The position numbers and the translations under genes were made by a program. The notes below the pieces were generated by a model. That model did no database searches. It saw nothing but the letters and a program-made list of their open reading frames with translations, and was not told where the DNA came from. A stretch of 62,835 bases of DNA, filler included, from Globobulimina sp. (taxonomy: Eukaryota): NCBI GenBank assembly GCA_003354225.1. It is 33 parts of 33 records of this genome, joined end to end, with 100 filler letters (N's around TTAATTAATTAA, not from the genome) between each part and the next. Parts side by side here need not be neighbours in the genome. Positions count along the whole stretch, not along the records: positions 7,633 to 9,440 come from PIVH01011705.1; 32 more parts are not named here. One strand, written 5' to 3'. This document shows positions 7,633-43,775 of the stretch, in pieces (within the stretch, counting starts at the first letter, position 1; every line of letters starts with the position of its first letter).

Positions 7633-9405
7633 ATCAATAGCTTCTTCAAATATATCCTCTTTAAGTATATGTTCTGGATTATCCAACGCACTGCGTGCCA
7701 CTTTGGCGATTCTTTCAAACATATCCGCATTCAAATTAATCTGTGCCGGCGATCGATCATCGCAATATTTGTTGTATAGCGCATTGAATTTTCGTTTTGC
7801 ATCGGCTCTCCATTCCTGTGCTTCCAATATAAACAATAAATTATTTATCGTCAGATTGCTGGTCATAAACATGCGTAAACAATACATCGTCATCGGATTA
7901 TCAATAATTGCTTGCAACGAACTTAATTCCTTAAAACTCTCCTCATCCACACTCGATTCGCGTGCTTCTGATTTGACAAAATCGGCAAACGACCGATGCA
8001 CTCTTCGCTCAATGACACTCGTTCGATGCTTCTCTTTCACATCGATTTCCCACACCCGATCACCGGAAGTTATCTGTGTGATTTTCCTGGACGCCATCAT
8101 TCCCAACGCTTTTCCCGATTTCTTATTACTGCCGTCATTATAACTCGCATTGCCACCGCCAAAAATGTCCATGATCCGCTCGCATAGCGCTTCCACGATG
8201 AATAGCTCGTCCTTATCCTCCATCAGATTCTCCACTGTCTGCGCCCCGCCCAATAAGCCAATGACGCCCGCCATCCGCATCAACAATTCCGTCAAACGCG
8301 CGATGGGCTGCACCACCAAACTCATCGTCGACGCCGTGACAAACAGCGTCGACGTGGCGAAGATCAATATGGCAAATAAGGTCAGACACATTCCCAACGC
8401 TGCTTCCTCCAAAACGTTGCTGCGAATATCGAACTGGATATAATCTGTACTGGTATCGGCGTCCATGTACAAGGTCCACATCTCGATATTCCTGCGATCC
8501 GCGATGGTGTGTTGATCGTTGTATAACTCGACACCTCCGATATTGATATATAATAAGGGCACTCCCACCGCCTGCAAGATATGGTACGAAGCCTGGAAAT
8601 CCAAACCGCCGTCGATGCAGTTTTTGAATAAATAGGCGCAGGTTGTGGCTGCGTCGGCGTATGAAGCACCGGAAGGGTCCATCCACGGCAACACCAACAC
8701 CAACACCAGGACCAAGACAATGACTTTCTTTGTCACTGCTTCCGACACAATCTGGCCCACTTTGGAAGAGCCCGCATCCACTACATTCTTCTCAGTGTCC
8801 TCCTCGTCTTCGACTTGAAAGAATTTGAAGACGCGCAACACCCGCAATAAGCGGCTAAACCGTATCATCCGAATGGCCTTTAATGCCACTGCAGAACGGC
8901 CGGATTTCCCTGCTTTGCTGGCTTGCGTATTGGCGATATTTATGTCGCCGTCGCCTGCTCCGAATAATGCTAATAATAAAGTCAAGTCCGGGATCATTGA
9001 GACCATCGCAATGAAATCTAACCAGAACCAAAAGGACAGGAAATAACCACGGCGTACTAACGAGGCTACTATCAATTCGATGAAAAAAAACCAAAATACT
9101 AGTAATAGGATAATATCTGTGCTAATGTCGATGCTTTGCGGCAGGAAAGCGATGGTGAAATCGTACGCTAATAAGGAAGTTATAGTGGCCACTATGGACG
9201 CGAACATCCAGAGTCCTCCATCCAGGAATTTCTCGCAACGGCGCGCCTTATCTGGCTTAATAACTCGATCTCGGAAACTCGATCTCTGACTGTCTGAATC
9301 TGAACTTGTCGGTGTCGCTTTTTGTTGGTTTTTGGGTGTGGCGATGTATGCTAATTTACGACCAAATTTGTTGTTGTTGAAGAACGTAAATAGAGATTTG
9401 GGCAT
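7633..9405 (-). CDS. Ion-transport/voltage-sensor-like membrane module + HAMP-like helix + RGS domain, 3' truncated, intronless
   Basis: S2 FFFIELIV, S3 FWFWLDFIAMVSMIPD, Arg/Lys-periodic S4 KAIRMIRFSRLLRVLRVFK, further TM helices, LVVQPIARLTELL, then RGS motifs LQAIIDNP..LRMFM..NNLLFILEAQEW..YNKYCDDRSPAQINL..IFEEA. Confidence 0.8.
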
Positions 9406-9817
9406 TTTTGCGTTTGATGAGGTTTAAAAGATATGTCTGTNNNNNNNNNNNNNNNNNNNNNNNNNNNNNNNNNNNNNNNNNNNNTTAATTAATTAANNNN
9501 NNNNNNNNNNNNNNNNNNNNNNNNNNNNNNNNNNNNNNNNTCGTGCATTATTAAATTGTTTTTTTTTGCGATTTTGACGTCAGTAATTCTTTTTTTTTTT
9601 TTTTTAATTAAATTTTTTGTCAACTGTTTTTCGGTTTAATTAGAAAATTAGAGATACACTACAAAAAAACACTAGCAAGTTACTTTCGATTGTGTGTAGA
9701 GCATCCTTGCCTAACACACAAGCCATATATCAGAAAATTGAAAACTAATATAAATCTAAATCTAATCGCGTCACAATTGCTCAACAATCAATAGAACTCG
9801 AATCATCATATATATCA

Positions 9818-10725
9818 ATGGCATCCGCAACAGAGGAGAAGAACAAGAGCAACACCACCACCACCACAAGGAATGGAGATGTGAACAACGCAGAGGACAA
9901 TAGCAGCTCATCCTCATTCGATGTGAGTAAAATAATTGAGAAATTATTGAATGTACGATCTAAACGACCCGGGACATTGGTAGAGTTAAACGAAAATGAC
10001 GTCGAGACCTTATGCCAGACGTCGCGAACCTTATTTATGTCGCAACCAATGTTTTTGGAGTTGGAGCCACCGATCAAAATAGTTGGCGATATCCATGGCC
10101 AATATTACGACTTATTGCGGTTGTTCGAGTATGGCGGCTATCCGCCCGATGCAAATTATTTATTTTTAGGCGATTATGTGGATAGAGGCAAACAATCGAT
10201 AGAATCCATCTGCTTATTGTTGGCATATAAGATCAAGTACACTGAGAATTTCTTCATATTGCGAGGCAATCACGAATGTGCCTCTATTAATAGAATTTAT
10301 GGCTTTTACGATGAATGCAAACGAAGGTACACTCCTCGTCTATGGAAGAGATTTACGGATTGTTTTAACTGTTTACCCGTTGCCGCCATTGTGGCCGATA
10401 AGATTTTCGCAATGCACGGCGGCTTATCACCCGAACTTAAATCATTTGACCAAATCAAAAAATTAGCGCGACCCACGGCGGTGCCGGATACAGGTAAGTT
10501 ACATAAATAATATATAATATAATTCCTCTCTTTCTGATTGCGATATTGCGCGCATTTCCGCACTCATTCTACATAGGTTTACTTTGCGATTTATTATGGG
10601 CAGACCCGGAGCAAATAGTGGGTTGGGGAGAGTCGGATCGCGGCGTGTCTTATATATTTGGCCCCGATGTCGTGGATTCGTTTTGTAAACGCTTTAGTAT
10701 TGACTTAATATGTCGAGCGCATCAG
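9818..10725 (+). CDS. PP1: Ser/Thr protein phosphatase 1 catalytic subunit (intron 10494-10576), truncated at a chimeric junction
   Basis: GDIHGQ, GDYVDRG and RGNHE motifs; exon 2 [22 protein letters not shown] stops before the expected VVEDGYEFF. Confidence 0.95.
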
Positions 10726-10922
10726 ACATATTAGCTGGTGAAATCTACATTAGTATCGAAAGGGTAAAATTTAATGCAAGATTGTTTAATGTGAAGATGC
10801 AAGATGAACTACATCGGGTTATGATACATGGCTTGCTGCACCTTGCTGCATATAATGATTCAACAAAATCCGAGAAAGAGATAATGAGGAGAAAGGAAGA
10901 TTATTACTTATCTTTGCGATAA
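10726..10922 (+). CDS. ybeY: Bacterial rRNA maturation RNase YbeY, C-terminal fragment
   Basis: [28 protein letters not shown] (HGLLHL metal-binding motif). Confidence 0.85.
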
Positions 10923-10963: not shown

Positions 10964-11348
10964 ATGTTTGAAGAATATGATATTATAGTTGCCGGAGCTG
11001 GACATGCTGGAAGCGAAGCTGCTGCCGCAGCAGCTAATATGGGCTCCAGGGTAATGTTGGTTACAATGAATATGGGTAATATTGCTCAGATGTCATGTAA
11101 TCCTGCTATGGGAGGTATTGCTAAAGGACAAATAGTAAGAGAAATTGATGCACTTGGTGGATATTCCGGAATAGTTACTGACAGAACTATGATACAATTC
11201 AGGATGCTTAATAAATCAAAAGGTCCTGCTATGTGGAGCCCGAGAGCACAAAGTGATCGAACGAGATTTTCTGAAGAATGGAGACTGGAGCTGGATAAAT
11301 TAGAAAATCTAGATTTTTGGCAAGACAAGGTAACAGAAGTAATTGTTG
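10964..11348 (+). CDS. mnmG: tRNA uridine-5-carboxymethylaminomethyl modification enzyme MnmG/GidA, Bacteroidota-like, 3' truncated
   Basis: [55 protein letters not shown]. Confidence 0.95.
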
Positions 11349-28619: not shown

Positions 28620-28840
28620 TCCTTGTAATACTCCATTTATTAAATCGTATGCAGAATCAATGAAAGATTTATTTTTGATTGCACTCTTTGAATTATCATA
28701 TATTGCACATAAAATTTTGCAGAGGTTAGGGGAAATATTTTTATTTTTTAATAATTTAAAAACCAGACCTTTTCTCTATACAGTATCAAAAGCTTTACTT
28801 ATATCTAAAAAAGCGCAGTACAGTGGTTTTTTATTTTTAA
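28620..28840 (-). pseudogene. LINE reverse transcriptase remnant
   Basis: Manual translation KPLYCAFLDISKAFDTV*RKGL..NGVLQG, with an in-frame TAG at the usual Trp position. Confidence 0.75.
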
Positions 28841-29241
28841 TTATCAATGAGCGAATGTACAACATCTAAACAACCATCGTAGTATTCGTGGTTGCCTGTA
28901 ATTAGTATGACATGCTTGAATTTGCGCGAACAATCTTTAATAAATTCTTTGTATTCTTCAGATGCTGGGCGTCCAATATCACCCAGTAATGCTAAAATAG
29001 GCGCTTTAACCTCAATTTTGGGCATTTTATTGAATGCATTTGGAAATTCCAAGTGAATATCTGATGCAATTTGTATTGCATTTTGAATGATTGTAATTCG
29101 TTCTTGTTTTTCTTCATTTGATATTTTAGATTCTGATTCCGTTTCAACTCCTTGTTTTTTGTCCTTTCTTTCTTTGAAATAAGATCTCAATAAGTCTTTT
29201 TTGAAAAGATCTCTCTGTGCCATGCATGCAGTCAAAATCAA
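28837..29241 (-). CDS. Calcineurin-like metallophosphoesterase, N-terminal fragment
   Basis: IASDIHLEF, LLGDIG and TGNHEYY motifs; ends abruptly at the RT remnant. Confidence 0.75.
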   Translation of the reverse strand: MILTACMAQRDLFKKDLLRSYFKERKDKKQGVETESESKISNEEKQERITIIQNAIQIASDIHLEFPNAFNKMPKIEVKAPILALLGDIGRPASEEYKEFIKDCSRKFKHVILITGNHEYYDGCLDVVHSLIDN

Positions 29242-29629
29242 AAATGTGTTGTAAATGCCAAAAACAGATTGTTGTTTTTAAGTACATATAAAAGTACAAT
29301 TGACTACTGCCAATTAAGTTCGGAGCTTAAACAATCAAAAGCATGTCACCTTTACAGTCACTTCTAGCCGAGATTGGATTTTTAAACTACGATAGCGGTT
29401 TACATACGAAACATCTATGCAATATAAGCATATGCTATCTTTGTTTAAAAGCAGTCTCAAAAACAACAGGCGATTTTGCAATAAAAATAAAAAAAAAAAC
29501 AAAAAATAAAATAGTATATATAGTTATTACACGTCGTGTGGAGCATATTGGGATGGATTTAAATCATTATTACCAAACCATATTTTATTATTTTATTATT
29601 GGAGTTATTTGGGACTTGGAGAGGTCAGC

Positions 29630-30040
29630 ATATTGTCATTGAGGCCTCCTTGATCCAGGCGAGCTTAATGGATTGGGACGACAATCAACCGATGGATTCT
29701 AAAAACGAGTCCGATGTGGATGACAACCAAGAATATAATGACCCGGCAGATGGAAAAGGCGCATTTTTCATCATTGATGTTGGCGGTCAAAAATCTGAAC
29801 GCAAGAAATGGATCAACTGTTTCAACCAAGTGACTGCCGTAATTTTCGTGGCCAGTTTAAGTTGTTACGATGAAGTGTTATATGAAGATTACAGCACAAA
29901 CAGTATGACGGATCAATTGGAATTATTTGATAAAATCTGTAACACCGACGCGTTGAGCGAGACGTCAATGATATTATTCCTAAACAAAAGTGATTTATTT
30001 GCGGATAAAATCGTAAATGTCCCTTTAACAATTTATGGCG
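29630..30040 (+). CDS. Heterotrimeric G-protein alpha subunit, internal fragment
   Basis: [47 protein letters not shown]-loop and normal C-terminus absent. Confidence 0.9.
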
Positions 30041-31054
30041 ACGGCAAATTAAAACATGTAAACAAATGGAATGCGAAAATAATATCGTTATTGGCAGATT
30101 CTTTTTTTCTTGGAATTTGTCAGAAAATTATTTTAATTTTATCCTGTGATGATAACCAATTTTTGCGTACGATCCGAACAGAAAATTCTGGGATGCTGAC
30201 CACAAATTATATGCCTGCGTTGCTTTGATTTTATTGGATTTTATATCCCTATTTGTGCCAAAAGGAGGAAGAAGAAGAAGAATTCGAAGGAGAGCCATGC
30301 GCATTTTCCATCGCTTATGTCGCTCCATATATGTCTGCCTTCACTGTGATGCAATGTTTTATGTTGATTTCATCAGAGTTTGTGTCGTCTAATGTACGGC
30401 GTCTAATTTATTGTGATGATAGCTTANNNNNNNNNNNNNNNNNNNNNNNNNNNNNNNNNNNNNNNNNNNNTTAATTAATTAANNNNNNNNNNNNNNNNNN
30501 NNNNNNNNNNNNNNNNNNNNNNNNNNTATTTTCTAGGCTTTCTTCTTGTTTTAAAGGCGGATTTCTTTGTTCGACTGTTGTCATGATGCTAATTGATTGT
30601 TGTTAGATTTCTCTTTATTTCTACGAAAGAAAGTAAAAGATGTGACAACTGACGGATTAAATTGACAAAATGGAGAGCTAAGTAAACTTAAAGTTTTTTT
30701 TAATTATTTATTTGTTAATGCATTTGTCAAACGAAACCAGAGAAAAAAATCAAAAAACCACCAAGAGTGTGATGCTGCAAAATCAAAACCAGAATATTTA
30801 ATCAAATACGTTTTTCGTTCTTTTGTTTTTAGTTAACGGACAATTGTAAGAACGTACAGTCTTGCGATATTCAGATCGAACATCGTTTATCAGATCAAAA
30901 AGAAAACTATATCAAAAGGAGTGTTTTTGTACGTTGAATATATTCATAATTTCAGATCGAACAATACGAAAATCACTAATAACTACACACATATCATACA
31001 CACACGAATAATGTATTATTAATAAATGAAACTGTTCCACCATCATCCATACAA

Positions 31055-32333
31055 TCACAGTGTCATTTCGCTATGACTCAACGTACTCTGTGCCATTTCA
31101 GTTGATCTGTGTGTTGTTACTTTTGTATGATAACGATTAAAAGTCTCAGTTGTTTGAAATCTATAGCTCGCATCATGCAAAGTCCATAAAATGTCAAGTG
31201 CCACATCATCAAAAACATGCAATAATTCCTGATTAGAACTTGTATATTCTTTCTCAAAAACAGAGTACAATTTATTGCGCATTTCACCAGATATATTAAT
31301 CGGATACATTGCTGCAACCATCACATACTTATTATATAACCCTTTCATTGCATTATAGATTGGCTGCTCTCTAAATTGCCCCTCCGATGATGTCAATATG
31401 TCGGTCATTACAACTCCAAATGGCAAACGTATATTAATTTCATTATTAAACTGCGTAGCGCACGCTTTGGAAAACAATGAATGTATTGACTCTTTTCGAT
31501 TTAATATACCGTTATATACATATTTACATTGCACCAATTCAGTAATAAATAGTAGCGATTCTGTGGCAAACTCAGTGATTAAATAGTTCATAAACAAACG
31601 AAATCCCATTTTATCGCTAATGATCTCAACTAATGGCGTATTAGTGTTAATATTTGTGTTTTGTGAGCTTTCTGTGAAGACCACATCGAAAGCGGTATTT
31701 CCCACCGGCGAATAATTATAATTTCGGGGTGGTTTCTTGGGAAAATGCATGAAATTTGCGCTCAGTTTTGATTTGATTGGAATCGATCGACTGATCCAAA
31801 AATTTCAAATTTCAGACATGTCCACATAATCATACCTGTTTTTTGTTGTTTTGTGAACAAATAAATAACGGATATAATGTGGAGGTTAATGCTAACAAAC
31901 TGTTGATAAAAACAGCATTAATGCTATAGGTTAAATATTCAATTCGGACAAAGTTTGTATTATTTTGGCCTTTAAAATAAAAAATAATTTCTTCAAATAA
32001 ATAAATGGTGAGAACTATCCATAAAACAATGTTTTGGAATTTAAATTCATTGCGAATACCAAATCGGTCAATGACTTTATTAGATTTACAAAATATAAGC
32101 AAGGCAATAAACAGCGGTATTGATACAAATGAAAAGTGAAAAATATGAATATATAAATTGTTATTCGCATTAATGAAAATTTGTAAGATTGGTCCAATGC
32201 ATATAAATAGTAAATACATTGGAAATAAAAGTTTGAATAAACGATAATTATTTGCATATTTGTGCTGATTTAAAATAAACCAATTTTCAGCATTTTTGCG
32301 ATTTATCCTTGTTTGCCATAATTTGGATGCGAA
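31055..32333 (-). CDS. Multi-pass membrane (7TM-type) RGS protein, 5' truncated
   Basis: TM helices with IDRFGIRNEFK, followed by RGS LVEIISDKMGFRLFMNYLITEFATESLLF..YPINISG..DASYRF. Confidence 0.8.
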
Positions 32334-41968: not shown

Positions 41969-43775
41969 ATGGAATCACAGCAAAGGTGCTAAAACAGGCT
42001 GTTCCTGCGATTGCTCAGCCATTAACTGATCTCATAAACGACTCCCTTCGAACTAAAACTTTCCCCGCAGCATGGAAAAAAGCAATTATTACCCCAATTT
42101 ACAAAGCTAAAGGGGCAAAAGATGATCCCGCGAGTTACCGCCCAATCTCTTTACTAAGTGTCGTAGGAAAGTTGGCTGAACGGGTTGTCACTGATCAGCT
42201 GTCTAAATATTTCGAAGACAACAAAATCCTTCCAAAATAGCAGTCGTTATTTCGGAAGGGCCACAGCACAAAAACGGCTCTTCTGGATCTAACTGACTCT
42301 TTCTATCTTGCCATGAGCAAAAAGCAACTAACTGCGTTGATTTTGCTCGATTATTCCAAAGCGTTTGACACCATAAATTACGACATCCTAATAGATAAAT
42401 TGCAGAAATATGGAGTGCTAGAAAAAGAGTGGTTCTTATCATACCTAACTGGTCGTGCCCAGCAGACGAAAGTCAATGATTCTCTATCCGATTCTGAGAC
42501 TGCGTTAGCCGGGTGCCCTCAGGGATCAGTCCTCTCACCTCTACTTTTTATAATATACATGGCAGATCCTAATACAGTAACATCTCATGTTCAATCAAGA
42601 CAATATGCTGATGACACACAGCTCTTCCTTAGCTTTTCCCCTAACAAGGGAGAAAGTTGGGATTCTGCGGCTCTTCGGGTTTCTCAGTTGATAGGAGATG
42701 ACCTGAAGGCCATACAAGAATGGGCGAAAGCAAATTGTCTAAAATTAAATCCATCAAAGACAGAGTTTTTGTTAATCGGTAGTGAGCCACTTCGAAAAAA
42801 GGCAAACATGGTGCTTGAATTCGGAGGGGCGCCACTAATACCTGTTGACAAAGCCAAATCTCTTGGAGTAATTATTGATTCCAATATGACTTTCAATGAG
42901 CATATTGATCTGGTCTGTAAGCGTATGGCTTCTAAACTGGGTCAGCTCTATGGGGTCAAAGGCTGTTTGTCCTTCCGTTTTAAAAAAACGCTTGTTCAAT
43001 CACTAGTATTGAGTCATTTGAACTATTGCGAACTGCTCTATCTGTGTACCACCAAACAGAACAGAGATCGTTTCCAACGGATTCAAAACTGGGCTGCTCG
43101 TTTTGTCTGTAACGCGGACAGAATGACAACAGCCCTTCCTCTCATCCGGCGATTGAAATGGCAAACAGTAAATGAACTGTATATGTTACGTTTGAGCAAG
43201 ATGACCTGGCAGTGTGCAAACAAGCCGGGTCAACTGCCGTCATACATAACTGAAAAATTCGAGTTTAGAGATGACATAAAGCGTACAACGAGATACAGTA
43301 CACATGCAATAGTGGCGGAGCCAGATATAGGTAGAACCAACTCCTATGGTCAAAGAATGTTCAGATGGCGCATGGCTCGCTTGGCGAACACAATTGGTCA
43401 TGAAGGATTGTTGAACCAGCCTCTGGCTACATTCCAACAAACTGCCCTCAGCAAATGGAATCAAATAAACCCTGACAAATTTTCCTTATATTGACGAAAC
43501 ACCGATTTTGGACTTCCTACTACCGATTTTGACATCTCACATGAATTTGACTCACTACCCAATTATGACCGTAAAATGATATCATTAATATTTAAATTTC
43601 TAAAATCCAGATACTATGTCTATAATATGTATAACTAGTCATTTTGTGTAGTTTTAATCATTATCGATGTTCTTCCTGTTTGTTTGTCATGTAAATATTC
43701 CTCGTTCAAAATACCTTCATACTTTGAAGAATAAAAGGATTTGTTGTAGCCTTTGGCGTGATACATTGTAGCCCA
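41969..43775 (+). mobile_element. LINE retrotransposon 3' part: RT (to 43494) with one in-frame TAG at 42238-42240, plus 3' UTR
   Basis: YRPISLLS, LDYSKAFD, GCPQGSVLSPLLF, YADDT and LNPSKTE motifs. Confidence 0.92.

Follow-up and report, generated by a model that had tools for sequence, protein, structure and literature searches.

The DNA analysed here, referred to as the window, is a stretch of 62,835 nucleotides from the Globobulimina sp. assembly GCA_003354225.1. It consists of 33 unlinked contigs of 1806-1808 nucleotides each, joined by artificial linkers (N44-TTAATTAATTAA-N44), so genes that adjoin one another in it carry no synteny information. On one of these contigs, of 1.8 kb (positions 7633-9440; record PIVH01011705.1), we find a gene that fuses a voltage-sensor module to an RGS domain. 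Its product, P0001, is a six-helix membrane protein of a conserved family, in which an S4-type sensor is followed by an S5/S6 hairpin, a cytosolic coupler, a conserved middle block and an R4-like RGS domain. The open reading frame (ORF) is a genuine eukaryotic gene that probably originates from a foraminifer or a close relative. Judging from this architecture, we see about an even chance that P0001 is a voltage-regulated GTPase-activating protein (GAP) for G-alpha. The parts of the ORF are listed below, with residues numbered along P0001.

7633..9405, minus strand: intronless ORF of 591 codons (P0001), with a complete N-terminus and a C-terminus cut by the contig end.
9226..9405, minus strand: cytosolic N-terminal region, residues 1-60, with a median identity of 38% in the close family.
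8818..9210, minus strand: voltage-sensor domain S1-S4, residues 66-196, from Pfam Ion_trans, matches to the Shaker voltage-sensor domain in PDB searches, and hydropathy.
8824..8880, minus strand: core of the S4 helix, KAIRMIRFSRLLRVLRVFK, residues 176-194, with K, R, R, R, R, R and K at every third position.
8680..8769, minus strand: S4-S5 linker SSKVGQIVSEAVTKK and S5 helix VIVLVLVLVLVLPW, residues 213-242, from conservation and hydropathy.
8401..8679, minus strand: S5-S6 loop, presumably extracellular, residues 243-335, variable and without a selectivity-filter signature.
8326..8400, minus strand: S6 helix, residues 336-360, from hydropathy and conservation.
8146..8325, minus strand: post-S6 cytosolic coupler LVVQPIARLTELLMRMAGVIGLLGG ... 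DELFIVEALCERIMDIFG, residues 361-420, conserved and without a HAMP profile match.
7966..8091, minus strand: conserved middle block ...ITSGDRVWEIDVKEKHRTSVIE..., residues 439-480, with a median identity of 83%.
7633..7920, minus strand: RGS domain, residues 496-591, from Pfam RGS, cut at profile position 91 of 117 by the contig end.

A first-pass annotation, made by reading the sequence alone, had described an intronless ORF with arginine or lysine at every third position of S4, an RGS domain running from about 7925 to the contig end and a truncated C-terminus, and all of these features are borne out. The start codon (ATG at 9405, minus strand) lies six codons past an in-frame stop, and the frame stays open to the contig end at 7633, giving 591 residues; alignment with the homologue P0002 puts the missing C-terminal part at about 70 residues. 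The strings quoted in that annotation were likewise all found in the translation: KAIRMIRFSRLLRVLRVFK with its seven basic residues, SKVGQIVSEAVTKKVIVLVLVLVLVLPW at residues 214-241 and LVVQPIARLTELL at residues 362-374. Pfam Ion_trans matches residues 66-196 (E 7.4e-9, 35.6 bits against a cut-off of 25) over profile positions 4-109 of 241, a span limited to S1-S4. Pfam RGS matches residues 496-588 (E 9.7e-8, 32.8 bits against a cut-off of 23.9) over profile positions 1-91 of 117, from position 7920 down to the contig end. Ion_trans, HAMP and RGS were the profiles that the first-pass annotation had proposed to search with; the first and last score above their curated cut-offs and HAMP is unmatched. 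Its statement that no cyclase separates the membrane module from the RGS domain also holds, with no Guanylate_cyc match in P0001 by Pfam and no match of a custom cyclase hidden Markov model (HMM) across the whole window. Hydropathy places S1 at residues 65-88, S2 at 98-116 and S3 at 120-149, and shows two membrane helices beyond S1-S4, S5 at 224-242 and S6 at 338-356, which bracket a loop of about 93 residues.

The fusion recurs well beyond this contig. We found 22 homologues of P0001 in five source collections, with 52-81% identity to it and collinear with it along its full length; precomputed Pfam annotation gives RGS in 22/22 and Ion_trans in 18/22. The closest, at 81% identity, is EukProt EP01084 from the foraminifer Bolivina argentea, and the close family of P0001 is probably foraminiferal. 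Full-length homologues have 657-708 residues and end about 70 residues past the point at which P0001 is cut, so that nothing more than the remainder of the RGS box and a short conserved tail can follow, and no cyclase. A metagenome scan yielded four loci, three of them on complete contigs of about 2.2 kb (L001-L003) that carry unbroken ORFs of 708, 695 and 685 residues. Each of the three, drawn from two sample series, has its own start and its own stop, the latter shortly after the RGS domain and with no cyclase before it. Their GC contents range from 34 to 55%, so the contigs come from different organisms. The same layout is carried by 28 distant RGS-type relatives that are less than 50% identical to one another.

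Several features are peculiar to the close family. Its members (P0002-P0023) share the N-terminal motif M-[PT]-K-S-[LI]-[FY]-x-F ... GRKLA, and the first 20 or so residues of P0001 (MPKSLFTFF..GRKLA) are kept among them while the remainder of residues 1-60 is variable. The middle block (residues 439-480) belongs to no known family and is confined to the close family. A conserved tail (..DP-x-TLNQLQLS..) follows the RGS domain, beyond the end of P0001.

The membrane module retains its gating-charge residues. The S4 basic residues of P0001 are K176, R179, R182, R185, R188, R191 and K194. We compared these and other sensor positions over 96 aligned relatives (18 close-family, 22 distant RGS-type and 56 cyclase- or phosphodiesterase-type rows). 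At the seven S4 positions nearly all of them have basic residues, E110 in S2 is glutamate or aspartate in 96/96, D130 in S3 is aspartate in 96/96, and F107 in S2 is phenylalanine in 87/96; D140 in S3 is conserved, and K215 and G217 of the S4-S5 linker are kept. In PDB sequence searches S1-S4 of P0001 matched the Shaker voltage-sensor domain, with F107 and E110 aligned to the Shaker S2 F..E and D130 to the Shaker S3 aspartate. By analogy with the roles of these residues in Kv channels, F107, E110 and D130 would form the charge-transfer centre. Within the close family, median identity is highest in S4 (96%) and in the S4-S5 linker with S5 (93%), followed by S6 (84%), the post-S6 coupler (83%) and the middle block (83%); it falls to 61.5% in the RGS domain, to 49% in the outer loop, the lowest value in the membrane module, and to 38% in the N-terminal region. 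A profile of this kind is what one would expect if the movement of S4 and its onward transmission are important; a pore loop would show the opposite. At the level of sequence, S1-S4 of P0001 has every hallmark of a working voltage sensor.

The region after S6 is a candidate for the relay between sensor and output. P367 is invariant in 96/96 relatives, and two blocks of the coupler (residues 363-382 and 403-413) are common to the close family and the distant RGS-type relatives. By eye, the coupler LVVQPIARLTELLMRMAGVIGLLGG...DELFIVEALCERIMDIFG resembles a helix-connector-helix. The first-pass annotation had called the helix in the LVVQPIARLTELL region HAMP-like, a label that we reject at the sequence level: residues 345-425 matched 0 Pfam families at E<=5, phmmer against PDB returned nothing significant, and a broad-family profile had no HAMP chain among the 60 PDB matches listed.

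We propose that these parts could work together as follows. A change in membrane potential would move S4, and the S4-S5 linker, S5/S6 and the post-S6 helices would relay this movement and so alter where the RGS domain sits at the inner membrane face or how accessible it is there. Voltage would then change the access of RGS to membrane-bound G-alpha-GTP, so that the lifetime of G-alpha-GTP would become voltage-dependent. Such a design has precedents in the hyperpolarisation-stimulated Paramecium cyclases, in voltage-sensing phosphatases and in other proteins whose sensor has an RGS output.

To place the module among its relatives, we searched residues 55-480 of P0001 exhaustively with HMMER against 1.84 billion representative proteins, which gave 1559 matches at E<=1e-3 and 497 at E<=1e-10. 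The best 150 of the 1559 include three close-family members; 140 of the remaining 147 were scanned with Pfam and 7 were left out for size. Among these 140 distant relatives Pfam finds Ion_trans in 88, Guanylate_cyc in 31, RGS in 28, PDEase_I in 7 and GAF in 2. A custom RGS HMM matches the same 28 RGS proteins, and a custom iterated HMM, which may have drifted, finds a cyclase-like domain in 64/147 relatives with E down to 1e-92. Relatives of 980-985 residues combine Ion_trans, a cyclase and a C-terminal TPR (P0184, for example), which we take to be the layout of the Paramecium and Plasmodium enzymes, a match by architecture only. By BLASTP, the P0001 module aligns with P0184 over the voltage-sensor domain (33% identity over 154 residues, E 3e-22) and, collinearly, from the S4-S5 linker to the post-S6 helix (23% over 176 residues, E 2e-6). 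The resemblance to channel-type adenylyl cyclases noted in the first-pass annotation is therefore homology, and it includes S1-S6 as well as the 'PIxR' helix that follows S6. In NCBI, at least one distant member of the module family is listed as a 'hypothetical protein'.

Trees of the module group the RGS-bearing proteins together. In a FastTree tree of 113 rows, a single group of 48 with a support of 92 contains all 40 RGS rows. We also built 60-row trees with IQ-TREE, which are unrooted and exclude six very long branches, as well as rows that cover the module poorly or have no recognised output; the quick run gave one split with support 0, and the careful run gave one split with support 53/52, with one change in 56% of 200 bootstrap trees (5-95% range 1-2). 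Each of the three trees thus keeps the RGS-bearing modules to one side of a branch, and the module phylogeny suggested in the first-pass annotation does set them on a branch of their own, albeit a weakly supported one (53/52). From these splits and change counts, the RGS output was probably gained once or twice and then diversified, with weak support and an unrooted tree.

Other combinations occur in the same set of relatives. Five proteins (P0081, P0091, P0129, P0133 and P0165) have a phosphodiesterase signature ahead of the voltage-sensor module, on its N-terminal side, and two of them, P0091 and P0129, also have a cyclase-like domain after it, placing phosphodiesterase, sensor and cyclase in one polypeptide. 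Cyclase-type relatives carry the Pfam family PF26726 in precomputed annotation. P0033, which joins the module to a cyclase, is from Rhodelphis marinus (EukProt), outside Stramenopiles and Alveolates, the two groups to which a 2025 paper tentatively confines cyclases with a voltage-sensor domain (PMC12223298).

The kinship with channel-type cyclases raises the possibility that P0001 is primarily an ion channel, a tetramer whose S5-S6 segments line a pore, as reported for the K+-channel-type cyclases of Paramecium. The RGS tail would then be an input or docking site through which G-alpha-GTP gates or localises the channel, and the channel might locally end the G-protein signal. We consider this unlikely. 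It fits the homology of the module, the topology of six transmembrane helices with an S4, and the intrinsic K+ conductance reported for those cyclases and the lowered hyperpolarisation-activated conductance after knock-down of Paramecium AC1/AC2. However, the Ion_trans match stops at profile position 109 of 241 in P0001 and at 110-119 in 17/17 relatives listed, and S5-S6 is covered by no PDB match among those listed. A TVGYG-like motif occurs in 0/113 module rows, and G[YFL]G within the S5-S6 loop in 0/18 close and 1/22 distant RGS-type rows. The P-loop of true channels is among their most conserved parts, whereas the S5-S6 loop is the least conserved part of this membrane module. A cytosolic G[YFL]G after S6, which Weber et al. 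(2004) reportedly read as a displaced K+ pore loop, is present in 39/56 cyclase- or phosphodiesterase-type rows but in just 1/40 RGS-type rows. Judged by pore-domain profile and selectivity-filter signature, P0001 would not be classed as a voltage-gated cation channel, although a missing recognisable filter does not prove missing conduction.

The cytosolic motif of the cyclase-type relatives has a second possible meaning. In the broad-family profile (positions 449-480), their 'GFG' stretch lines up with the residues immediately ahead of the catalytic domain in photoactivated adenylyl cyclases, and it may be a cyclase-coupling element instead of a displaced pore loop.

It is also conceivable, though we rate it as quite improbable, that S1-S4 no longer senses voltage and serves as a membrane anchor or as part of a sensor for some other stimulus (a ligand at the outer loop, lipid, pH or mechanical stress, for instance), making P0001 a receptor-like membrane RGS protein comparable to the 7TM-RGS proteins. 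An outer loop of 90-108 residues is present in 18/18 close-family rows, membrane-anchored or receptor-like RGS proteins exist (7TM-RGS, PMC9283941), and Paramecium AC1/AC2 are discussed in connection with mechanical stimulation. Yet an anchor would not need seven S4 charges and their S2/S3 counter-charges, kept in about 100 diverged relatives, and S4 and the S4-S5 linker are the most conserved parts of the protein while the outer loop is among the least.

The output domain resembles RGS proteins of the canonical kind. A family profile matched the PDB chains of RGS1, RGS10, RGS4, RGS2 and GAIP (2bv1, 2ihb, 1agr, 2af0 and 1cmz) over the whole RGS box with E from 8e-8 to 5e-6. Both this comparison, with E of about 1e-7 for the RGS1, RGS10, RGS4 and RGS2 chains, and the Pfam score of P0001 itself support the C-terminal region as RGS, as the first-pass annotation had it. 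The match in P0001 stops at profile position 91 of 117, and its homologues carry the whole box; Pfam RGS was above cut-off in 10/10 distant RGS-type relatives checked singly. We counted the equivalents of RGS4 residues along the alignment with 1agr_E in 23 close and 27 distant rows. N88 and N128 of RGS4, which are G-alpha-contacting asparagines in the RGS4-Gi-alpha1 structure 1agr, have an asparagine at their equivalents in 23/23 close rows each, and in 20/27 and 22/27 distant rows respectively. The equivalent of RGS4 E87 is the canonical glutamate in 27/27 distant rows.

A possible substrate is encoded elsewhere in the window. A G-alpha fragment lies at 29599-30228 (plus strand) on another contig, with a Pfam G-alpha match at E 2e-39 and the motifs DVGGQ (catalytic GGQ) and NKSD (NKxD); one exon is recognisable on that contig, and switch I was not found on it. 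On a third contig, 31055-31750 (minus strand) encodes a second RGS protein of 231 residues (Pfam RGS, E 8e-9), which has no membrane module and is unmatched by the family-specific RGS HMM. Because of this fragment and this second RGS protein, heterotrimeric G-protein signalling is probably present in the source organism.

The RGS domain could instead be an RGS-homology scaffold with no GAP activity, as in GRKs, AKAP10 and sorting nexins, that binds G-alpha or some other partner, with voltage governing the recruitment; this we regard as very doubtful. At the equivalents of three RGS4 contacts the close family is altered (E87 to N, D163 to N and R167 to Q), and RGS domains that bind small GTPases exist, AKAP10 being an example. 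The best PDB matches are nevertheless canonical R4/RZ GAPs and not the RGS-homology domains of GRK, SNX or AKAP proteins, both asparagines are kept throughout the close rows, and the distant RGS-type relatives keep the canonical E-N pair.

The last alternative, that a channel gene and an RGS gene were joined artificially during assembly or amplification, is effectively refuted: although the assembly holds at least one mixed contig (9541-11348) and the contig pieces of the source runs do not span the whole ORF, the 22 collinear homologues from several sources, the three complete ORFs on independent contigs and the distant relatives confirm that the fusion is genuine, a single mis-assembly behind all homologues is excluded because of their 52-81% identities and differing GC contents, and no joints or loose ends appear where the pieces cover the ORF. 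The four runs that yielded these pieces belong to a single sample, from which the assembly was probably made. Positions 8747-8791 and 7922-7996 are covered by no piece, and the pieces, being short and of low depth, are no independent test of continuity; one of them, from run X4, extends 120 nucleotides beyond position 7633. The concern about a chimera in the first-pass annotation was a fair one, given the mixed contig. That contig carries a eukaryotic PP1-type phosphatase at 9818-10510, with a second exon to about 10734, which stops where the C-terminal half of a bacterial-type YbeY starts (10710-10922); the start of MnmG/GidA follows (10964-11347). Its make-up suggests a chimera formed in assembly or amplification, or a join of host and bacterium.

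Returning to a voltage-regulated GAP as our favoured reading of P0001, several points weigh against it. Voltage dependence and GAP activity are both deduced from architecture. About 135 residues lie between S6 and the RGS domain. The altered RGS4 contacts make the G-alpha specificity, and even the GAP competence, of the close family uncertain. The assembly is mixed, and within it the G-alpha fragment and the fusion lie on different contigs, the fusion contig being a GC outlier (0.458). The branch that parts RGS-type from cyclase-type modules is weakly supported, and the K+ conduction reported for the Paramecium relatives makes a channel role possible. The first-pass annotation had offered the same interpretation, and most of what bears on it stands, namely the fusion, the ending without a cyclase, the homology of the module, the sensor charges and the RGS asparagines; the HAMP label does not.

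P0001 can be compared with several known systems. Ion-channel/adenylyl-cyclase fusions have been described in Paramecium, Tetrahymena and Plasmodium, and the Paramecium cyclase relatives are reported to respond to hyperpolarisation (PMC10651576, PMC12414865, PMC12223298, PMC10587447). Like these, P0001 has S1-S4 with S4 charges, the SKVG...TKKVI motif of S4-S5/S5, an S6 and the post-S6 'LVxxPIxR' helix. Unlike them, its output is RGS and not a class III cyclase and it has no TPR tail; RGS-type modules in general nearly all lack the cytosolic G[YFL]G and form their own, weakly supported branch. Voltage-sensing phosphatases (VSPs; Ci-VSP/TPTE) follow the same design principle, with an S4-type sensor driving a cytosolic enzyme whose target is a membrane-bound signalling molecule, and consist of S1-S4, a short linker and a PTEN-like phosphatase (PMC10651576). 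P0001 differs from them in its two further transmembrane helices, long conserved coupler and RGS domain, and we found no specific sequence relationship between P0001 and VSP beyond the generic voltage-sensor domain.

RGS proteins offer a second set of comparisons. With the R4/RZ proteins RGS1, RGS4, RGS10, RGS2 and GAIP the P0001 family shares the N88 and N128 equivalents; those proteins are small and soluble or lipid-anchored, whereas the RGS domain of P0001 is the C-terminal output of a six-transmembrane sensor and carries, in the close family, N in place of E87 and of D163 and Q in place of R167. RGS also serves as the output of a covalently attached sensor, for an external or physical cue, in the 7TM-RGS proteins of plants and Naegleria (PMC9283941) and in the LOV-RGS photoreceptors helmchrome and BcLOV4 (PMC8017926). 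In P0001, by contrast, the sensor is an S4-type voltage-sensor module: there are six helices with a charged S4 and an Ion_trans profile in place of a seven-helix receptor domain, and no LOV domain. A 2023 review of voltage-sensor domains lists VSP, the protozoan channel-cyclases and the sperm Na+/H+ exchanger, and makes no mention of RGS (0 occurrences; PMC10651576). Full-text searches of the literature turned up no description of a voltage-sensor-RGS fusion, although an earlier mention is possible. As far as that search showed, the layout is present in databases, undescribed, and kin to the voltage-sensor-coupled enzymes.

Known voltage-sensor-coupled enzymes are few, and a voltage-sensor-RGS protein would join membrane potential and heterotrimeric G proteins in one polypeptide. 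If P0001 does work in this way, it would put heterotrimeric G-protein signalling under a voltage-controlled brake for which no animal counterpart is known, and could be a natural template for voltage-controlled G-protein tools. Because the same module also carries cyclase and phosphodiesterase outputs, it may be a general, exchangeable voltage-input cassette in protists. Somewhat short of an even chance, in our view, is the wider proposal that protists possess modular voltage-to-messenger transducers, in which one S4-sensor module is wired to cyclase, phosphodiesterase or RGS outputs and the RGS branch sets the lifetime of G-alpha-GTP by membrane potential. The module family offers natural domain-swap controls for the study of signal transmission in the poorly understood channel-cyclases. 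In foraminifera, P0001 may connect electrical events with behaviour under G-protein control.

The remaining contigs of the window bear on the origin of the gene. They are plainly eukaryotic in content, with TBC RabGAP, kinesin, dynein heavy chain, JmjC, CAP and reverse transcriptase domains. The fusion contig has the highest GC content of the 33 (0.458, against 0.25-0.41 in the other 32; GC at third codon positions in the ORF is 0.55), and we therefore treat it as no more than likely to come from the same organism as the others. No Rfam family was matched in the window. Reverse-transcriptase ORFs or fragments lie at 42313-43494 (plus strand; Pfam RVT_1, E 1e-20) and 28776-28865 (minus strand), indicating retroelements in the source genome.

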